The notes under the pieces were generated by a model. It was not told the origin of the DNA. It saw only the letters and a list, made by a program, of their open reading frames with translations, and searched no databases. Made by a program: the position numbers and the translations under genes. This document shows, in pieces, positions 5,234 through 11,021 of a stretch of 28,245 nt of DNA. Location: the UHGV virus genome UHGV-0133447. One strand, 5' to 3'. The stretch is from a virus. The stretch's first letter is position 1. The number at the start of each line of letters is the position of its first letter.

Positions 5234-5612
5234 TTGAACCTCCTCCCCGGAACCGGGTCAGCATATTGAACAAGCTATTTAGATCCTGGCTGTTGAGAAA
5301 CGTCAGAACTTTGATGATAAGCGCTGATATTAATACGGCTCCCAACGCATCAAGCGGACGGTCGCTGTAGCCAGTCCAGCTTGAAAGCTTGGAACCCACC
5401 AGACCGGCGCCCAGAACACCAACAATGAATGACGTCATAAAGTATGCCACCAGCTTACCGCGCGATATGTTAGCTGCCGTGGCCACGTAAAAAACCGCCC
5501 CGGCGAACGCACCAAATACCACGCCGTAATCTATTCCGGTAGCCAGACCGAACATGCTAGCCCCCATCAGGCCGCCGGCCGCAACTGAAGTACCAGAGAC
5601 AGGATCGGACAT
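5223..5612 (-). CDS. holin-like membrane protein (possible holin/antiholin partner)
   Basis: 129 aa, Gly/Ala-rich hydrophobic segments, GAGGGGG RBS. First gene of the lysis cassette. Confidence 0.55.
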   Translation of the reverse strand: MSDPVSGTSVAAGGLMGASMFGLATGIDYGVVFGAFAGAVFYVATAANISRGKLVAYFMTSFIVGVLGAGLVGSKLSSWTGYSDRPLDALGAVLISALIIKVLTFLNSQDLNSLFNMLTRFRGGGSSGK

Positions 5613-5657
5613 TTAGCCCCCTCTATTGCTGTGGATCCTCTCAGAACGAGGGGAAAA

Positions 5658-5671
5658 TAGGATGGCCGCCA
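5658..5671. repeat. 14-bp direct repeat copy 1 (taggatggccgcca)
   Basis: Exact 14-mer also at 6271-6284. The two copies bracket an AT-richer segment carrying the opposite-strand ORF 5855-6265. Confidence 0.7.
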
Positions 5672-5854
5672 TGTGACAGCCACCAAAAATCACTGTAAAA
5701 ATATCAGGATTCACCACCCTCTCAGACGGATTTATTCTTCTTGTTCAGTCTCGTCCGCGTACGAAGCCAAGGATGTATCCAAGACCAAAACAAGAAAAAC
5801 CGAATCCCACCACGGGTAATACTGAATAAATAAAATCAGGCATAGGGAAATCTC

Positions 5855-6265
5855 ATGGAAATTATTTCAGTAATCGGAGTGATACTGACACTGCTAGGGC
5901 TCTTTATTCCGTCACTAATCAGTAACCATTCGTCACGTAAGGCAGAGTTCAGGAAGCATTCCGCACCACTGCTGGGAAAGTTGCTAAGCGAAATTGAGGC
6001 TATTGAAGGAGGCTCTTATCCATTCAGGCTTATCAGCGATGCTGATTTCAACCAGTTGCTACCTTACGCCCCGAGGCGCAGGAAAAACGCTCTCCTTGAT
6101 GCTTACACCAGTTATCTCGACGCTCATACGATGGCCACCACGAAGCACTGGCACGATGAACATCCATCCGATGGAATGCTATTTTTCCCGACGGGTTTCT
6201 CAGTCACTAATTCAGATGAGGTACTGAAGAAAATGCAACCTCTGAAAAAAGAACTCAGCAGATAG
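5855..6265 (+). CDS. hypothetical membrane-anchored protein (136 aa), moron candidate
   Basis: N-terminal hydrophobic segment IISVIGVILTLLGLFIPSLI. AGGGAAA upstream of the ATG. Opposite strand to the late operon, in visibly AT-richer DNA bracketed by the 14-bp repeats. Confidence 0.5.
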   Translation: MEIISVIGVILTLLGLFIPSLISNHSSRKAEFRKHSAPLLGKLLSEIEAIEGGSYPFRLISDADFNQLLPYAPRRRKNALLDAYTSYLDAHTMATTKHWHDEHPSDGMLFFPTGFSVTNSDEVLKKMQPLKKELSR

Positions 6266-6270
6266 TCCTT

Positions 6271-6284
6271 TAGGATGGCCGCCA
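6271..6284. repeat. 14-bp direct repeat copy 2 (taggatggccgcca)
   Basis: Exact match to 5658-5671; lies 6 nt after the stop of ORF 5855-6265. Confidence 0.7.
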
Positions 6285-6330
6285 GATGGATTAACGACAA
6301 AGCACAGAGTGAATGATGCTCTGGTGGCAC

Positions 6331-6358
6331 AAATAAAAAAGCCATGCAAATGCATGGC
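6331..6358 (-). terminator. intrinsic terminator-like hairpin (minus strand)
   Basis: Perfect palindrome gccatgca-aa-tgcatggc (6341-6358). On the minus strand it is followed by TTTTTTATTT (complement of 6331-6340). Confidence 0.5.
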
Positions 6359-6462
6359 CTTGTGGTTTGAATCCGTTATTTACAAAATGTATTCGAGACA
6401 GTATCTTTCGACTTCCGGACAAAAAAACATATACCGGGACAAAATCTAAATGTAACTGCCTT

Positions 6463-6493
6463 GCCTGCATGAAACCATGCGGGCTTTTTTTTT
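6463..6493 (+). terminator. intrinsic terminator (plus strand)
   Basis: Stem gcctgcatg/catgcgggc (one mismatch) with loop aaac, followed by nine T (6485-6493). Confidence 0.55.
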
Positions 6494-6496
6494 GGC

Positions 6497-6522
6497 CAAA
6501 GAAAAAGCCCACCGAAGTGGGC
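6497..6522 (-). terminator. intrinsic terminator (minus strand) with UUCG-type tetraloop
   Basis: Minus-strand reading ggcccac-ttcg-gtgggc followed by TTTTCTTTGG. Lies downstream of the TerB-like gene. Confidence 0.5.
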
Positions 6523-6896
6523 CTTACAGCTATCATCATTTTTTATTAGGTGTGGTGCCGGGTGCCTCCCGGTAAGTCGCCGCCAGTCCACAGACGACTC
6601 GCAATGCGCAAAAAAACATATCAGACTGGCAATGCCCCTCCGCATAGGGGGATTCACCACACGGATAATTTAGGATGTAGTCATAGGCGGCGTCAATAAC
6701 TGACACTCTGTCAAAGGCATCATTACGATGCCTTTTGCACAGTGCTAATCACTGGATCTAATAAGGGGCCAGAGCAAAGCGATTACCCCGGCTACCAGCA
6801 CGCCATCAGCCAGGATTGACATCATTTTGCTGGTGAAGTCGATAGCAACCACCAGAAACAAAAGCACCCCGGCTGCGGCCCAGCGAAGTTTACCGA

Positions 6897-7322
6897 TCAC
6901 AGGTACTGGTCCAGAGGAAGTTGCAGAGCCTGGGCAATTTTCTTCAGCTGTTTCTCTTCTTCTTCCCCGATGCCGTCGTTATCAGCTACATCAAGACACA
7001 GGCAAAGAACATCGACAGCGTCATCCGTCCCGGCAACGTCAGCCAGTTCGCGCAACGCCTGAGCGTTGGCTGAACGTGGTGATGCTTCATAGCGAGCGCG
7101 AATATTCGAACTCATCTGGGCAATTTCACCAGCAAATGGCGCGAATGCCGGGAGGGCCGAAATAGTCTTCTCCAGCACTGCAATCTCTTTTGCATCGCAG
7201 GTACCATCGGCGTATGCAATCGAGTACGCTCCCCAGACCGTGGCTTCTACGGCATCGCGGTTTTCCATTTTTTTTACTTCAACAACGGCTTTACGGGCTT
7301 TCTTTTTAAAAATACCGAACAT
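6897..7322 (-). CDS. TerB-like domain protein (tellurite-resistance TerB fold), moron candidate
   Basis: Using the ATG for MFGIFKKK...: two acidic motifs (AYADGTCDAKEIAVLEK and VADNDGIGEEEEKQLKKIAQAL) matching the TerB pattern from memory. The track ORF extends to 7403 with an alternative upstream start. Confidence 0.5.
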   Translation of the reverse strand: MFGIFKKKARKAVVEVKKMENRDAVEATVWGAYSIAYADGTCDAKEIAVLEKTISALPAFAPFAGEIAQMSSNIRARYEASPRSANAQALRELADVAGTDDAVDVLCLCLDVADNDGIGEEEEKQLKKIAQALQLPLDQYL

Positions 7323-7341
7323 AATTACGTCTCTCTTTAGT

Positions 7342-7404
7342 GGTGAGCCAACGCTCAGGGATGGTAACCACAAGGCGACGTAATACCGTCCCTCTTGGCT
7401 CACC
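7342..7404 (-). promoter_or_regulatory. long composite hairpin in the leader of the TerB-like gene
   Basis: Outer 10-bp stem ggtgagccaa (7342-7351) / ttggctcacc (7395-7404). Inner 8-bp stem agggatgg (7357-7364) / ccgtccct (7386-7393) with one wobble. Sits between the HNH-AP2 stop and the TerB-like start. Confidence 0.35.
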
Positions 7405-7453
7405 CTGAAAAGTTGTGGTTTTGATTTTTCCGCCGAGCGAGGCGGCTATGAGC

Positions 7454-7954
7454 TTAAATAGATGAAAAATCACCATGGTACTGCCTGGAAGCAGCTACAT
7501 ACGCCCTGTGCGCTTCTTCTTTAGTGTGGAAGCGACCAAGTCGAATTTTTTTCTTTGCAATACTTATTTGCGCAATCCATTTTTTTCTATTGCGGGGGGA
7601 ATCGTTGAAATAGACCCCTTTAAGTCCAGCTGCGTTATTGCTGTGTATCCGTCGATTGCGAGTGTTCTGGTTTTGTGTGCAGAGCCTGAGATTTGTAATA
7701 CGGTTATTCAACTTGTCGCCATCAATATGATCAACAACAAGGGTTGACGGAATTTCACCGTATTTCAAGACCCAAATTATTCGGTGCACACGTATATTCT
7801 TTCCATTGAAGAATACCCTTAAATACCCAGTATCAGTCTTGACGCCAAGAGTGTCGCCAGGACTTTTACTCCCAAAAGGTGACTTGCAATAAAGGATGCC
7901 CGTAGTTTCATCGTATGAAAAAAAGTTCCTAACCGTTTCAAGAGATAGATTCAT
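7454..7954 (-). CDS. HNH homing-type endonuclease with C-terminal AP2-like DNA-binding domain
   Basis: 166 aa. HNH core VVDHIDGDKLNNRITNLRLCTQNQN. C-terminal GVYF...KKWIAQISIAKKKIRLGRFHTKEEAHRAYVAASRQYHGDF resembles AP2 domains (memory). AGGAG RBS. Gene is visibly AT-richer than its flanks. Confidence 0.8.
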   Translation of the reverse strand: MNLSLETVRNFFSYDETTGILYCKSPFGSKSPGDTLGVKTDTGYLRVFFNGKNIRVHRIIWVLKYGEIPSTLVVDHIDGDKLNNRITNLRLCTQNQNTRNRRIHSNNAAGLKGVYFNDSPRNRKKWIAQISIAKKKIRLGRFHTKEEAHRAYVAASRQYHGDFSSI

Positions 7955-8008
7955 GCCTACTCCTGGTATGGGTCCTGTGCTTAAATAACGCCGAGCGTGG
8001 CGCAGATA

Positions 8009-8033
8009 CGAAAAAGGCCCGCGAATGCGAGCC
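8009..8033 (-). terminator. intrinsic terminator-like hairpin (minus strand) upstream of the HNH-AP2 gene
   Basis: Minus-strand reading ggctcgc-attc-gcgggcc (7-bp stem, one G-U pair) followed by TTTTTCG. Confidence 0.45.
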
Positions 8034-8246
8034 TGATGGATCCGCTTACTGATACGGAGCGACCAACCTAAGTTGTCGCAGATTCAAATTGTGGCCCTGC
8101 CTTTAAGTCACTTTGCGCGCAGCTGGGACATGTAGTTTTCGCATCGTGATCGGGATTCGCTTCAGACGCTGGCCCCGCAGCCATTTAAGTGCCGGTTACG
8201 TTTATCCGGCGGCTTTCGCCCGGTTAAGCCCTAAGGTAAGGGATTT

Positions 8247-8393
8247 GGTTGTGACACCAGGCCGTTACGCCTGCTTACTTCCTGCCGCTCTGTTTTGGTA
8301 TTGGCCGCCAGTAACTGCGACTCAGCCGATTTACAGGTCTTTGCGTCGGCCGGCGCTGCAGCCCACTTGAGCACATCACAACGGAAAGAGCGC
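8247..8393 (-). ncRNA. candidate structured tRNA-like element, copy A (degenerate)
   Basis: Minus-strand leader gcgctctttccgttgtgat resembles the leaders at 21901 and 22159. gttgtga can pair with tcacaac about 130 nt downstream to close the element. Contains gcgccggccgacg internal motif. Region 8036-8505 has no credible ORF. Confidence 0.3.
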
Positions 8394-8505
8394 TTAGTGC
8401 ATTTAAGCCAAACCCCATGTAGGAAGCACTCTTACCTGTTGTGCGCTCCGTTTCGTGGAGCAGACGCCGCCGGAATCGCACCGGCAGAATCATCACATTG
8501 GTATA

Positions 8506-8581
8506 TGGTGCTGGTTGACGGAATCGAACCGCCGACATCCTGCTTACAAGGCAGGCGCTCTACCAGCTGAGCTAAACCAGC
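8506..8581 (-). tRNA. tRNA-Thr (anticodon UGU), phage-encoded
   Basis: Minus-strand 76-nt cloverleaf GCTGGTT-TA-GCTC-AGCTGGTA-GAGC-G-CCTGC-CTTGTAA-GCAGG-ATGTC-GGCGG-TTCGATT-CCGTC-AACCAGC-A-CCA. Acceptor 7 bp, D-loop GG, anticodon loop with U33 and A37, canonical T-loop, encoded CCA. Confidence 0.8.
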
Positions 8582-9621
8582 AAATTACGCATTTCACTGA
8601 CCGTCTGTTCAAATCTCTCGGTTTCCAGTTCGACACCTAGTCCCCTTCGCCCGAGAAGAGCAGCCTGCTTGAGCGTTGAGCCTGATCCAAAAAAGAAATC
8701 AGCTACAACATCACCCGGGCGGCTACTCGCTGTGATTATCTGCTCCAGCATATCCGCAGGCTTTTCACATGGGTGTTTACCTGGATAAAACTGAACAGGC
8801 TTATGAGTCCAGACGTCGGTATATGGCACCGTGACCGATACGCTGAATGGTCGCCGTAAACGGTAATATTCCTGCTGGAGTTCAGAATATTTTCGGCTTA
8901 ACGATTGCCAGGTGCCGACAAGCTGGTGGTGAGGTTTTCCCAGTTCGTTGCGTGAGTGCTTATCCATGGCGATTGTTTGAAACAAAGCCTGCAACTTTAA
9001 ATAATCGGCTTCGTTCGGTAGCTGCCACTGACTAAGGCCAAACCAGTGGGAAACCATATTTTTCTTACCTGTGGCTTCTGCAATCTGAGCCGACGTCACG
9101 CCAAGAGATTCCCGTGCATCACGGAAGTAAGAAATTAAAGGCGTCATGACGTGTTGCTTTAACTCATTACACTTTGCGGCATATCCATCGTCTTTGGGCC
9201 TGTATGGCCCCTGATAATGGTCGGCAAAAATGATACGCTCAGTGGCCGGGAAATAAGCGCGTAAGCTCTCCTTATTGCAGCCGTTCCATCGCCCTGATGG
9301 CTTAGCCCAGATGATATGGTTGAGCAGGTTAAACCGCTCTCTCACCAACAGCTCAATATCCGCTGCCAGGCGGTGCCCACAGAACAGATACATGCTGCCG
9401 GCAGGTTTTAACACTCGCCAGAACTGTGCCAGACAGCTATCCAGCCAACGTAAATAGTCTTCGTCCCCCTTCCATTGGTTATCCCAGCCGTTTGGCTTCA
9501 CCTTAAAATAAGGCGGATCGGTAACAATAAGATCAATGGAGTTATCGGGTAGCGATGGGAGGTATTGCAGGCAATCAGCATTGATTAACTCAATACTGGA
9601 TATTTTTACAGTATTTTTCAT
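8572..9621 (-). CDS. orphan DNA methyltransferase, N6-adenine/N4-cytosine (beta) class
   Basis: 349 aa with TDPPYF catalytic motif near the N-terminus. No adjacent restriction endonuclease. The ORF's last codons overlap the 5' end of the tRNA. Confidence 0.85.
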   Translation of the reverse strand: MKNTVKISSIELINADCLQYLPSLPDNSIDLIVTDPPYFKVKPNGWDNQWKGDEDYLRWLDSCLAQFWRVLKPAGSMYLFCGHRLAADIELLVRERFNLLNHIIWAKPSGRWNGCNKESLRAYFPATERIIFADHYQGPYRPKDDGYAAKCNELKQHVMTPLISYFRDARESLGVTSAQIAEATGKKNMVSHWFGLSQWQLPNEADYLKLQALFQTIAMDKHSRNELGKPHHQLVGTWQSLSRKYSELQQEYYRLRRPFSVSVTVPYTDVWTHKPVQFYPGKHPCEKPADMLEQIITASSRPGDVVADFFFGSGSTLKQAALLGRRGLGVELETERFEQTVSEMRNLLV

Positions 9622-9770
9622 AGATCAGTAAGCGTAACTCTGATAGGCTCACTTTGCTTTTGCGCTAAAGCAGTGGGCCGTGGTTAGCTTGTGACCTGAA
9701 AGCATGAGCTGATGGCTGGCCGGGTGCTACAACACCCACCAGCCGCCCATTTTCACAGCAAAAGCCCCCA

Positions 9771-9992
9771 TTACTGGAGGCGCTTATAACATCCGAACTG
9801 ATAATCAGATAACCCCGCCATTACCAGCTGCGTAAGTATGAGCTGGCAGCGTTCGCGGCTCAGGTGAGTATTCTGAGCAATCTCCCCAGCCGTAGCCGGT
9901 TTGTCACTTAACTCATCAAAAACAGCCTTGGCTGTTTCCGTCATATCTTGCTGATTTAGCATGTCTTTTATCTCAAATAAGTGGTGTGACAT
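9771..9992 (-). CDS. small winged-helix-like DNA-binding protein (hypothetical; PapI/FaeA-like fold only suspected)
   Basis: 73 aa from the ATG (MSHHLFEIK...); the track's longer ORF starts at a TTG. Segment ATAGEIAQNTHLSRERCQLILTQLVMAGL has an HTH-like pattern. First ORF downstream of the late promoter/terminator. Confidence 0.35.
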   Translation of the reverse strand: MSHHLFEIKDMLNQQDMTETAKAVFDELSDKPATAGEIAQNTHLSRERCQLILTQLVMAGLSDYQFGCYKRLQ

Positions 9993-10063
9993 ACAGATAA
10001 CTCTGGTGACGGTATCCAGCAAGAACTAATTGAAAGAGAAGAAGATTTTATCGATTTTATCCC

Positions 10064-10089
10064 ATAAAAAAACCCGCTCGCTGGCGGGT
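10064..10089 (-). terminator. intrinsic terminator just downstream of the putative late promoter (tR'-like)
   Basis: Minus-strand reading acccgc-cagcga-gcgggt followed by seven T (complement of 10066-10072). Confidence 0.5.
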
Positions 10090-10127
10090 TAATCAACGTT
10101 GAACATACAAAGCCCATCGTTATAAAT

Positions 10128-10156
10128 AAAATTACACAAAAGCGGCAACTTTGCAA
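10128..10156 (-). promoter_or_regulatory. candidate late promoter (PR'-like) immediately downstream of Q
   Basis: Minus-strand TTGCAA (10151-10156), 17-nt spacer, TAATTT (10128-10133). About 40-60 nt upstream of the terminator at 10064-10089, analogous to the lambda PR'-tR' arrangement. Confidence 0.35.
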
Positions 10157-10172
10157 GTAACGTGTCGCTAAA

Positions 10173-11003
10173 TTATGCGATATTTATCAAATCAGGCACC
10201 TTTGTCACACGTTTAAGCTGTGAGTCGGTATAACTCTCTTCCTCAAAGCATCTTGTAACCAGACTTTCATAGAAAGGTTTCCAGCTATATCGCCAGGTAC
10301 GTTCTGGCAGACCAGGCAGCTCAGAGAGCATACCCCTGTATGCATTCGAAGACTTAGGACGACTATAACCGCGGCCTTCACAACGTTTACACACTTTGTA
10401 GACAGGCACTCCCTGCAGCTCTGACTCTTTACGGTCCAGGGTTTTTCCCGTACCGCCACACTGGCATCGCTTGCTGATTTTCCCGGTGCCGCCACATTTG
10501 AAGCAAAGAACATGGTCAACCTCTTCCACCTGACGTTTTACTTCAAAATCCGAAGGTGACTGCCTGAGGTCTTTTGCCCATTGCGGTAATCTCATTGTGT
10601 AGTGGCTTTTTTCCACCATTGAGGTTTTTTTTATGAAGCCTGAACCAGAACACTTCCTGCAATCTACGCTGTCAGCTGCAGACGAGGCATAGTCGTTATA
10701 AGCGAACCGAGCTATTATCAGCATACACAGCGGGAACTTCTTCCCTGCTGCTTTTCTTATCGATCGAGGCGCTTTTGATTTTGCATATTCAGCCAACCAA
10801 CTGACGGATGCCTTTCTGTCGTGTTCGCTGATTCCAGCTTTACCCAAAAACATTGACAGGCCTATTCCTGCCTCTGCCTGTGTCATCCCCAGAGCCGCCA
10901 TTACATCTGTCACAGTAAGTTGCTCGCTGGCGGTTGCAAGACCGCTATCGGAAATATGCATTCCTTTGGGCGCAAAAAATTTGGGAATTGATTCAATATT
11001 CAT
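10173..11003 (-). CDS. late-gene antitermination protein Q-like (Cys-rich, zinc-binding type)
   Basis: Repeated Cys pairs CRKCSGSG / CFKCGGTGK / CQCGGTGK / CKRCEGRG. Position directly upstream of promoter plus terminator and adjacent to DUF968 resembles Qin-type Q (memory). ATG at 11003 has a GGAG RBS; the track's GTG at 11021 is an alternative start. Confidence 0.65.
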   Translation of the reverse strand: MNIESIPKFFAPKGMHISDSGLATASEQLTVTDVMAALGMTQAEAGIGLSMFLGKAGISEHDRKASVSWLAEYAKSKAPRSIRKAAGKKFPLCMLIIARFAYNDYASSAADSVDCRKCSGSGFIKKTSMVEKSHYTMRLPQWAKDLRQSPSDFEVKRQVEEVDHVLCFKCGGTGKISKRCQCGGTGKTLDRKESELQGVPVYKVCKRCEGRGYSRPKSSNAYRGMLSELPGLPERTWRYSWKPFYESLVTRCFEEESYTDSQLKRVTKVPDLINIA

Positions 11004-11021
11004 GCTCAGTACTCCATACAC

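Follow-up and report, generated by a model that had tools for sequence, protein, structure and literature searches.

Phages, cyanobacteria and protists have long been known to encode proteins that join an HNH nuclease to an AP2 domain (PMC2248197, PMC10448857). Their genes are treated as homing endonuclease genes (HEGs; PMC10448857, PMC2248197), and Magnani et al. (2004) is cited for the wider HNH-AP2 family. The enzyme that best matches the protein described here, in sequence and in fold, is I-HmuI of the Bacillus phage SPO1 (PDB 1U3E), whose catalytic residues have been named as D74, H75 and N96 (PMC12724721). The two are alike in their extended N-terminal beta region, in an HNH(N) site with its D-H/N/N residues, and in being monomeric enzymes with a modular DNA-binding tail, yet they share ~26% sequence identity only. 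They differ in their setting as well: a group I intron encodes I-HmuI, whose last domain is a helix-turn-helix, whereas the gene analyzed here is free-standing in an intergenic leader and its product ends in AP2. In Skunavirus, I-HmuI-like enzymes have been shown to cause marker exclusion (PMC12724721).

The closest named phage homologs (40-44% amino acid identity) are the HNN-AP2 genes of the Xanthomonas phages Xp10, OP1 and Xop411, which have the same architecture and size and include degenerate copies. These are multi-copy genes scattered over lytic phages, their flanks are not conserved, and the authors who described them inferred a sequence-independent spread (PMC2248197). In contrast, our phage is temperate and has a single copy of its HNH-AP2 gene, at one site that is precisely conserved and for which empty counterparts are defined. 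Homologs of the gene product were found in 3,895 phage records. Annotated phage genomes contain HNH-AP2 genes in their thousands, and to our knowledge almost none of them has a defined target.

The nuclease gene and its phage

The window, as we call the whole stretch of 28,245 nt analyzed here (UHGV-0133447), is a lambdoid prophage closest to Klebsiella phages, and the closest protein cluster carries a name from Klebsiella oxytoca. All genes and leader elements described below are read on the minus strand, where the order is a Q antiterminator (10173-11021, PF03589), a small winged-helix-like ORF, an N6/N4 methylase (8572-9621), a tRNA-Thr(UGU) (8506-8581), a terminator, the HNH-AP2 gene (7454..7954) and a TerB-like gene (6897..7322), followed by DUF3927 (6745-6900), the STnc100 sRNA (RF02076, 6494-6691), holin, GH19 endolysin, a small HNH gene (2484-2825), TerS and TerL. 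The terminator is an intrinsic-terminator-like hairpin (8010..8034) of 8 pairs, 6 of them GC, followed by TTTTT; it closely precedes the leader of the TerB-like gene in empty and filled sites alike (conserved in L108, L002 and L105). Because of this gene order, we place the HNH-AP2 gene within the late operon, past the terminator, and infer Q read-through from lambdoid biology. The TerB-like gene is the constant downstream neighbor of every HNH-AP2 ortholog in the neighbor gene tables. It encodes 141 aa; Pfam TerB and phrog_632 align to the ORF from residue 28, the true start being the ATG at 7322 rather than the GTG at 7403. STnc100, between DUF3927 and holin, scores 100.7 bits against a gathering score of 47. 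The small HNH gene, directly upstream of TerS/TerL, reaches 21.2 bits for PF01844, just under the cut-off of 21.4, and likely encodes a packaging cofactor. A weak Trp-leader-like Rfam match (10064-10153; 25 bits, E=0.07) lies just downstream of Q in a stretch of 38% GC, and is probably a late promoter or terminated leader region rather than a trp element.

The HNH-AP2 gene is an ORF of 166 aa with an ATG start, preceded at 5 nt by a Shine-Dalgarno motif (AGGAG, 7960-7964). Its product consists of an N-terminal beta region and HNH(N) nuclease domain (residues ~1-100) and an AP2 DNA-binding domain (residues ~112-161). A sequence-only reading of the window had claimed HNH and AP2 domains, and the Pfam, PHROG, family-profile and Foldseek searches bear it out. 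The Pfam family HNH_3 matched residues 55-99 (E=7e-21; 74 bits, above the cut-off of 24.8), and the PHROG search returned phrog_99, "HNH endonuclease", at 1e-62. The Pfam AP2 match (residues 112-161) has E=6e-7, yet its 30.1 bits lie below the cut-off of 33.3, and because AP2 was sub-threshold there, we searched solved structures with a profile built from a 30-member family alignment of the protein. This profile matched I-HmuI (1U3E) at 2.9e-16 and plant AP2 domains in four matches between 3.7e-14 and 1e-6, including WRI1 (3.7e-14), TEM1 (1.2e-8) and AtERF1 (1e-6). An AlphaFold2 model of the protein has a mean pLDDT of 92.5; its top PDB match in Foldseek is again I-HmuI (1u3e_M, probability 1.00), with the beta-beta-alpha-metal fold. 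The C-terminal domain of the model superposes on the AP2 domains of TEM1 and AtERF1 at 1.4-1.5 A over 51-54 residues, and this superposition, together with the profile matches, gives it the three-stranded sheet packed on a helix of the AP2 fold. Residues D75, H76, N88 and N97 align with D74, H75, N87 and N96 of I-HmuI; among the 30 homologs, D75 and H76 are invariant and N97 is at least 90% conserved. The dN/dS against orthologs of 70-84% amino acid identity is 0.11-0.19, which indicates that the protein has been maintained. We conclude that the product of positions 7454-7954 is an I-HmuI-like HNH nuclease, intact and joined to an AP2 domain, with an activity predicted from its sequence.

The gene had been described as AT-richer than its flanks, and this is so: the GC content of the ORF is 41.3%, ~10 points below that of the flanks (51-55%; window mean 51.0%), and falls at the 0.21 percentile of all 501-nt windows. 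The same reading had taken this composition as consistent with a recent insertion. The insertion itself stands, as near-isogenic phages lack the gene, but the low GC is no sign of recency, because orthologs in other phages (70-84% identical) are likewise of 40-41% GC, beside TerB genes of 54-57% GC. The gene is thus not a fixture of all relatives at matching GC: empty relatives exist, and its GC remains ~10 points lower.

The position next to a "tRNA region" holds in part. A tRNA is present, as a single tRNA-Thr(UGU) ~550 nt from the HNH-AP2 gene, and the proximity is incidental, tRNA presence being uncoupled from that of the nuclease gene. The segment that carries it (8254-8576, 323 nt) is itself an indel, with 12 nt in its place in close HNH-bearing relatives; since all close carriers lack this segment, it is the tRNA, and not the HNH gene, that varies in the lineage. 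Carriers without the tRNA (L019, L022, L181-L184) and HNH-less relatives with it (L107, L105, L002) both occur, and we therefore rejected a functional link between the two. Some HNH-less relatives have a tRNA-Arg or tRNA-Gly beside their tRNA-Thr, and in the window the 3' end of the methylase ORF overlaps the tRNA-Thr by 10 nt.

The insert and the RNA leader that it splits

The HNH-AP2 gene was found in eight IMG/VR contigs and in Klebsiella phage Kp4866-6, with flanks 96-99% identical, and in 8 of these carriers the protein is 99-100% identical (the protein of the window matches L019 at 100% and five others at 99%). Relatives lacking the gene, which had been expected to define the insertion site, do so: filled sites (L001, L019-L024, L026) can be set against empty ones (L108, L106, L107) at 95-99% flank identity, and the insert comes out as 7413-7970. 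The empty locus L108 matches the window at 96.3% from 11223 to 8579, at 96.4% from 8253 to 7975 and at 93% from 7444 to 6634, and 28 of its bases match on both sides of the HNH-AP2 gene. A global alignment breaks at ~7971/7970, after ...gcgccacgctcggcgttatataaccacagagcc and before tttcaggggtgagcc..., which leaves 558 extra bases in the window (7413-7970). The uninterrupted leader of L108 reads gcgccacgctcggcg...ccacagagcc and continues, across the insertion point, with tttcaggggtgagcc; the empty-site sequence around this point is ...CCACAGAGCC followed by TTTCAGGGG..., and the uninterrupted 25-mer site has 0 matches in the window at up to 3 mismatches.

In order, the insert holds a 16-nt UTR that includes the ribosome-binding site, then the ORF and a further 8 nt, and it closes with a duplicate, now diverged, of the bases lying just ahead of the break. 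Its 5' end, the short UTR of the HNH-AP2 gene (7955..7970), begins at the break in the L108 alignment, and the same 5' UTR (cttaccaggagtaggcATG) is found in all diverged HNH-bearing loci. Its 3' tail (7413..7453) holds the 8 nt, a second small hairpin (CCGCC-TCGCTC-GGCGG, 7430-7445), an A-rich linker and AACCACAA (7413-7420), and stands in for the displaced 5' part of the leader. That displaced part, the resident leader start (7971..8003), is the remainder of the uninterrupted site 5' of the insertion; it comprises the hairpin GCGCC-ACGCTC-GGCG(U) at 7988-8003, whose core is identical in HNH-less loci, and the remnant ...gcacaggacc. The duplication is visible as the direct repeat D2 (7431-7444 and 7989-8002; 13/14 identical, spaced by 558 nt), the 14-nt core of which sits within a ~34-nt diverged duplicate of leader sequence. 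On comparison at 7955-7975, 21 nt (tttaggctcgccacagagtg) that the HNH 5' UTR has kept in the diverged carriers L179, L181 and L182 are missing from the window lineage; in those carriers they form a GAGCC-UUUA-GGCUC hairpin, after which comes a second CCACAGAG. We rejected a transposon or IS insertion, as there is no transposase ORF and no terminal inverted repeat, and the repeat is long, diverged and leader-derived. A second short repeat, D5 (TGAGCTTAAATA and TGTGCTTAAATA), was judged to be at chance level, because many families of 10-15 nt occur in the same kilobase.

The gene had been called free-standing, and it is, lying between the terminator and the TerB leader with no Rfam match to intron families in 5500-10500. 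That nothing is interrupted holds for coding genes and introns, but not for RNA: the insert splits a conserved structured leader of ~125 nt between its 5' strand (CCACAGAGcc-uuu) and its main stem, and partly rebuilds it. This leader lies between the intrinsic terminator and the start codon in all ~175 TerB loci that we collected (in the window at 7323-7445; also at L099-L264), and is common to two TerB alleles that are only 39% identical in amino acids. It consists of a 5-bp GC hairpin, the string CCACAGAG, a helix P0 (CCUUU/AAAGG) that covers the Shine-Dalgarno sequence, a helix P1 (GGUGAGCCA/UGGCUCACC) and an inner helix P2 with CUCUGUGG in its loop. The loop string is complementary to the upstream CCACAGAG, which suggests a pseudoknot. 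Each pair of this putative pseudoknot is canonical in 49-52 of the 52 distinct leader sequences, and fully compensated changes affect three of its pairs in two lineages (L151, CCAUGGAG/CUCCAUGG; L173/L200, CCGCAGAG/UCUGCGG); P2 and the small hairpin covary too among the 52 sequences. The leader may control translation of the first late gene. Neither it nor the two spacers around the HNH-AP2 gene had an Rfam match at E<=1 over 5500-10500, RefSeq gives CDS only at the TerB locus, and the sequence strings of the leader were not found in the searchable literature. PasA and PasC sRNAs have been reported near TerB genes, and STnc100 has been related to PasD sRNAs (bioRxiv 10.64898/2026.05.13.724894); we rejected PasA/PasC as the TerB leader, as they end in terminators.

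Both spacers had been read as hairpin-rich, which is right for the downstream one (7320-7456), with a fold of -46.8 kcal/mol and z=-3.57 against shuffles. The upstream spacer (7952-8253) is no more structured than its shuffles (z=-0.32), although it still holds the terminator-like hairpin (8015-8034) and the 5-bp hairpin (7988-8003).

Wherever the HNH-AP2 gene is present, the leader that follows it is of a distinct type, which we call B-type. In the window its body (7323..7412), which contains the inverted repeat I5, has a P0 of CUUUU/AAGAG over the ribosome-binding site and a P1 at 7395-7404 and 7342-7351; UUGUGGUU (7366-7373), in its loop, is complementary to the AACCACAA of the insert tail (7413-7420), and the hairpin of the B-type leader, CCGCC-TCGCTC-GGCGG, shows a compensatory flip of the closing pair. 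Identity to L108 is 95.1% in the upstream flank, 58.9% in the leader body, 97.2% in the TerB CDS and 99.2% further downstream. A leader-specific 17-mer, with which we sought B-type loci in IMG/VR, occurs at 8 leader loci, and all eight have the HNH-AP2 gene directly upstream; no ortholog was found at the ~165 loci with other leader types. This flank, with its full linkage and a 59%-identity tract ending at the TerB ATG, is compatible with co-conversion or with plain recombination.

Orthologs with 84% (Cronobacter), 73% (Franconibacter) and 70% (metagenomes) amino acid identity have an identical position, upstream remnant and tail, all of them ~130 nt upstream of a TerB-like gene, in backgrounds with at least 3 different terminators, differing Q genes and lysis cassettes and, in some cases, the 39%-type TerB. 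The HNH-less loci L185 and L188, which have this latter background, carry an ordinary leader and the same TerB 5' codons as the carrier L182, so that the downstream boundary is the TerB start in two backgrounds. A co-conversion reaching ~70 nt into TerB in the L182 lineage was considered and rejected on the same ground: because L185 and L188 have the same codons, the similarity reflects conserved N-terminal coding sequence. The insert 7413-7970 is thus a precise 558-nt unit, fixed in position across mosaic backgrounds and linked to one leader allele.

Two related prophages of IMG genome 2718218255 (L022 and L026) both carry the cassette, one copy being intact. The copy in L026 has a 1-nt deletion in a C-run (codon ~120), and that of L001 (Kp4866-6, an "UNVERIFIED" record) a 1-nt frameshift near codon 45; these may reflect decay or sequencing error. 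Unrelated HNH-family genes, 30-40% identical in amino acids to the HNH-AP2 protein, are found between Q and TerB in L113, L114, L122, L170, L172 and L215 (~200 nt upstream of TerB), in L239/L250, in L157 and in L211, and in one such group the gene has landed between a sigma-70-like late promoter (TTGACT-17-TATGCT, which L110/L136 have intact) and the terminator belonging to it. The Q-to-TerB interval is a recurrent landing zone for nuclease genes.

Proposed homing and its alternatives

We consider it rather probable that the insert is a site-specific homing endonuclease cassette, active at the TerB leader site through a predicted cleavage. The HNH-AP2 gene would be transcribed late, by Q-dependent read-through of the upstream terminator, and its product would bind the uninterrupted leader DNA of HNH-less relatives and nick or cut it near the insertion point. 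By analogy with the extended binding of I-HmuI and with the GC preference reported for AP2 domains (PMC10448857), the AP2 domain would probably sit on the GC-rich palindrome GCGCC-N6-GGCGC, with the HNH domain ~25 nt downstream. Repair off the HNH-bearing genome would then transfer the cassette and the leader variant that matches it, in a co-conversion tract that stops close to the start codon of TerB. A genome carrying the cassette would itself be immune, as the insertion has split its site and the rebuilt copy is mutated: the intact palindrome would now run into cassette sequence, and the rebuilt site would present a changed palindrome and a shifted junction. The insertion would cost the phage little, since the duplicated tail would keep the TerB leader foldable, and this tail plausibly exists because it gives the leader back its hairpin and its pseudoknot strand. 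Enzymes of the I-HmuI type are nickases, and the route from a nick to homing is less well established.

A further proposal, which we put forward tentatively, is that the insertion target is a pseudoknotted cis-regulatory RNA, not described before, which stands at the head of the first late-operon gene in many lambdoid phages of enterobacteria, and that the cassette has evolved to carry a matching substitute for the 5' hairpin and pseudoknot strand of this RNA. If so, the nuclease gene and one leader allele would have to travel together to keep the RNA foldable, the unit of selection of this mobile element would include the compensatory half of an RNA structure, and "immunity" would arise from the splitting of the AP2-bound palindrome away from the cleavage region.

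The distribution of the cassette tempers the homing proposal. It is rare (8 of ~680 TerB candidate loci in IMG/VR), and a megablast against 5,426 E. coli genomes gave no match, which counts against efficient homing, since such an element might be expected to be commoner. A protein scan of species-representative genome contigs returned distant homologs only (<=48%), the carrier strains being outside that set. The divergences of the HNH and TerB proteins rank alike (84%/95% and 70-73%/39%), so that the pattern could partly be vertical co-inheritance. The boundaries of the cassette, moreover, coincide with the small hairpin and the 5' end of TerB, which are its best-conserved surroundings, and ordinary homologous recombination would place its crossovers there too.

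This rarity and these boundaries would equally suit a passenger gene (moron) moved only by ordinary homologous recombination at conserved lambdoid module boundaries, with a nuclease that serves, for example, to degrade competing phage or host DNA or to counter defence; the Q-to-lysis interval is in addition a known hot spot for morons, and here also houses tRNAs, a methylase and the other unrelated HNH genes. We nevertheless hold this explanation to be unlikely, though the most serious of the alternatives, as it accounts poorly for a position fixed to the nucleotide in every lineage and for the perfect linkage to one leader variant (8/8). The sharply localized tract of 59% identity likewise fits a site-specific element with co-conversion, whereas a generic moron would need no such properties.

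That the gene always lies beside the same leader might also be expected of a domesticated regulator, whose AP2 domain would act on the TerB-like gene or on late transcription by binding the leader DNA or its GC-rich hairpin, the nuclease being irrelevant. The AP2 domains of phage CasPR proteins do act as transcription silencers, but CasPRs have no HNH domain (bioRxiv 10.64898/2026.02.23.707548). Here the catalytic D-H...N...N residues are invariant or nearly so and under purifying selection, and ~165 TerB loci function without an HNH-AP2 gene, which makes this role quite improbable.

We give marginally less credence still to the idea that the gene is left over from a past invasion, inactive and decaying and with no function today. 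The frameshifts of the L026 and L001 copies and the truncated protein P0006 (97 aa) point in this direction, and degeneration after invasion has been described for the HNN-AP2 genes of Xanthomonas phages (PMC2248197). Yet the copy in the window is of full length with all catalytic residues and is matched at 100% in L019 and at 99% in five others, and its dN/dS of 0.11-0.19 extends over a deep divergence. Finally, HNH proteins are common packaging cofactors in cos phages, which is the sole support for a terminase-associated packaging HNH of the HK97 gp74 type, and we dismiss this explanation: the gene is ~5 kb from the terminase genes, its family is HNH_3 plus AP2 and not PF01844, the position directly upstream of TerS/TerL belongs to the separate small HNH gene (2484-2825), as in L179, and most relatives lack the HNH-AP2 gene and are still complete phages.

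Relation to other free-standing endonuclease genes

Seen as a homing cassette, the insert resembles T4 MobE and other free-standing HEGs (PMC2790892, PMC2988022), which are likewise intergenic HNH-family genes with presence/absence polymorphism, and whose spread brings with it the co-conversion of adjacent sequence to which we liken the leader tract of our cassette. The difference lies in the target and in the state of proof: cleavage and homing are proven for MobE, with nrdB as a coding target, whereas the target proposed here is a non-coding RNA leader, in a temperate phage. A second likeness is to the I-HmuI-like HEGs of Skunavirus and the IPA-HNH HEGs of ICP1 (PMC12724721, PMC10448857), which form phylogenetic clusters tied to insertion locations and lie at boundaries of genetic exchange, those of ICP1 having an AP2 tail as well. 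These are genes of virulent phages, and a duplication that rebuilds an RNA structure has not been described for them.

As the site can be compared in its empty and filled states at 95-99% flank identity, with the insertion point placed within a few nt, the locus offers a convenient case for the study of recognition by AP2-tailed HNH enzymes, and the empty-site sequence provides a concrete substrate that can be synthesized. The cassette would also suit the question of whether homing runs between temperate lambdoid phages and co-resident prophages.

Within this company, the HNH-AP2 gene is a fairly ordinary member of the known I-HmuI-like HNH(N) nucleases and of the known HNH-AP2 architecture. 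The newer parts are the definition of its site at the nucleotide level, the duplication that restores a structure, and the uncharacterized leader RNA, this leader being the more novel by-product of the analysis.
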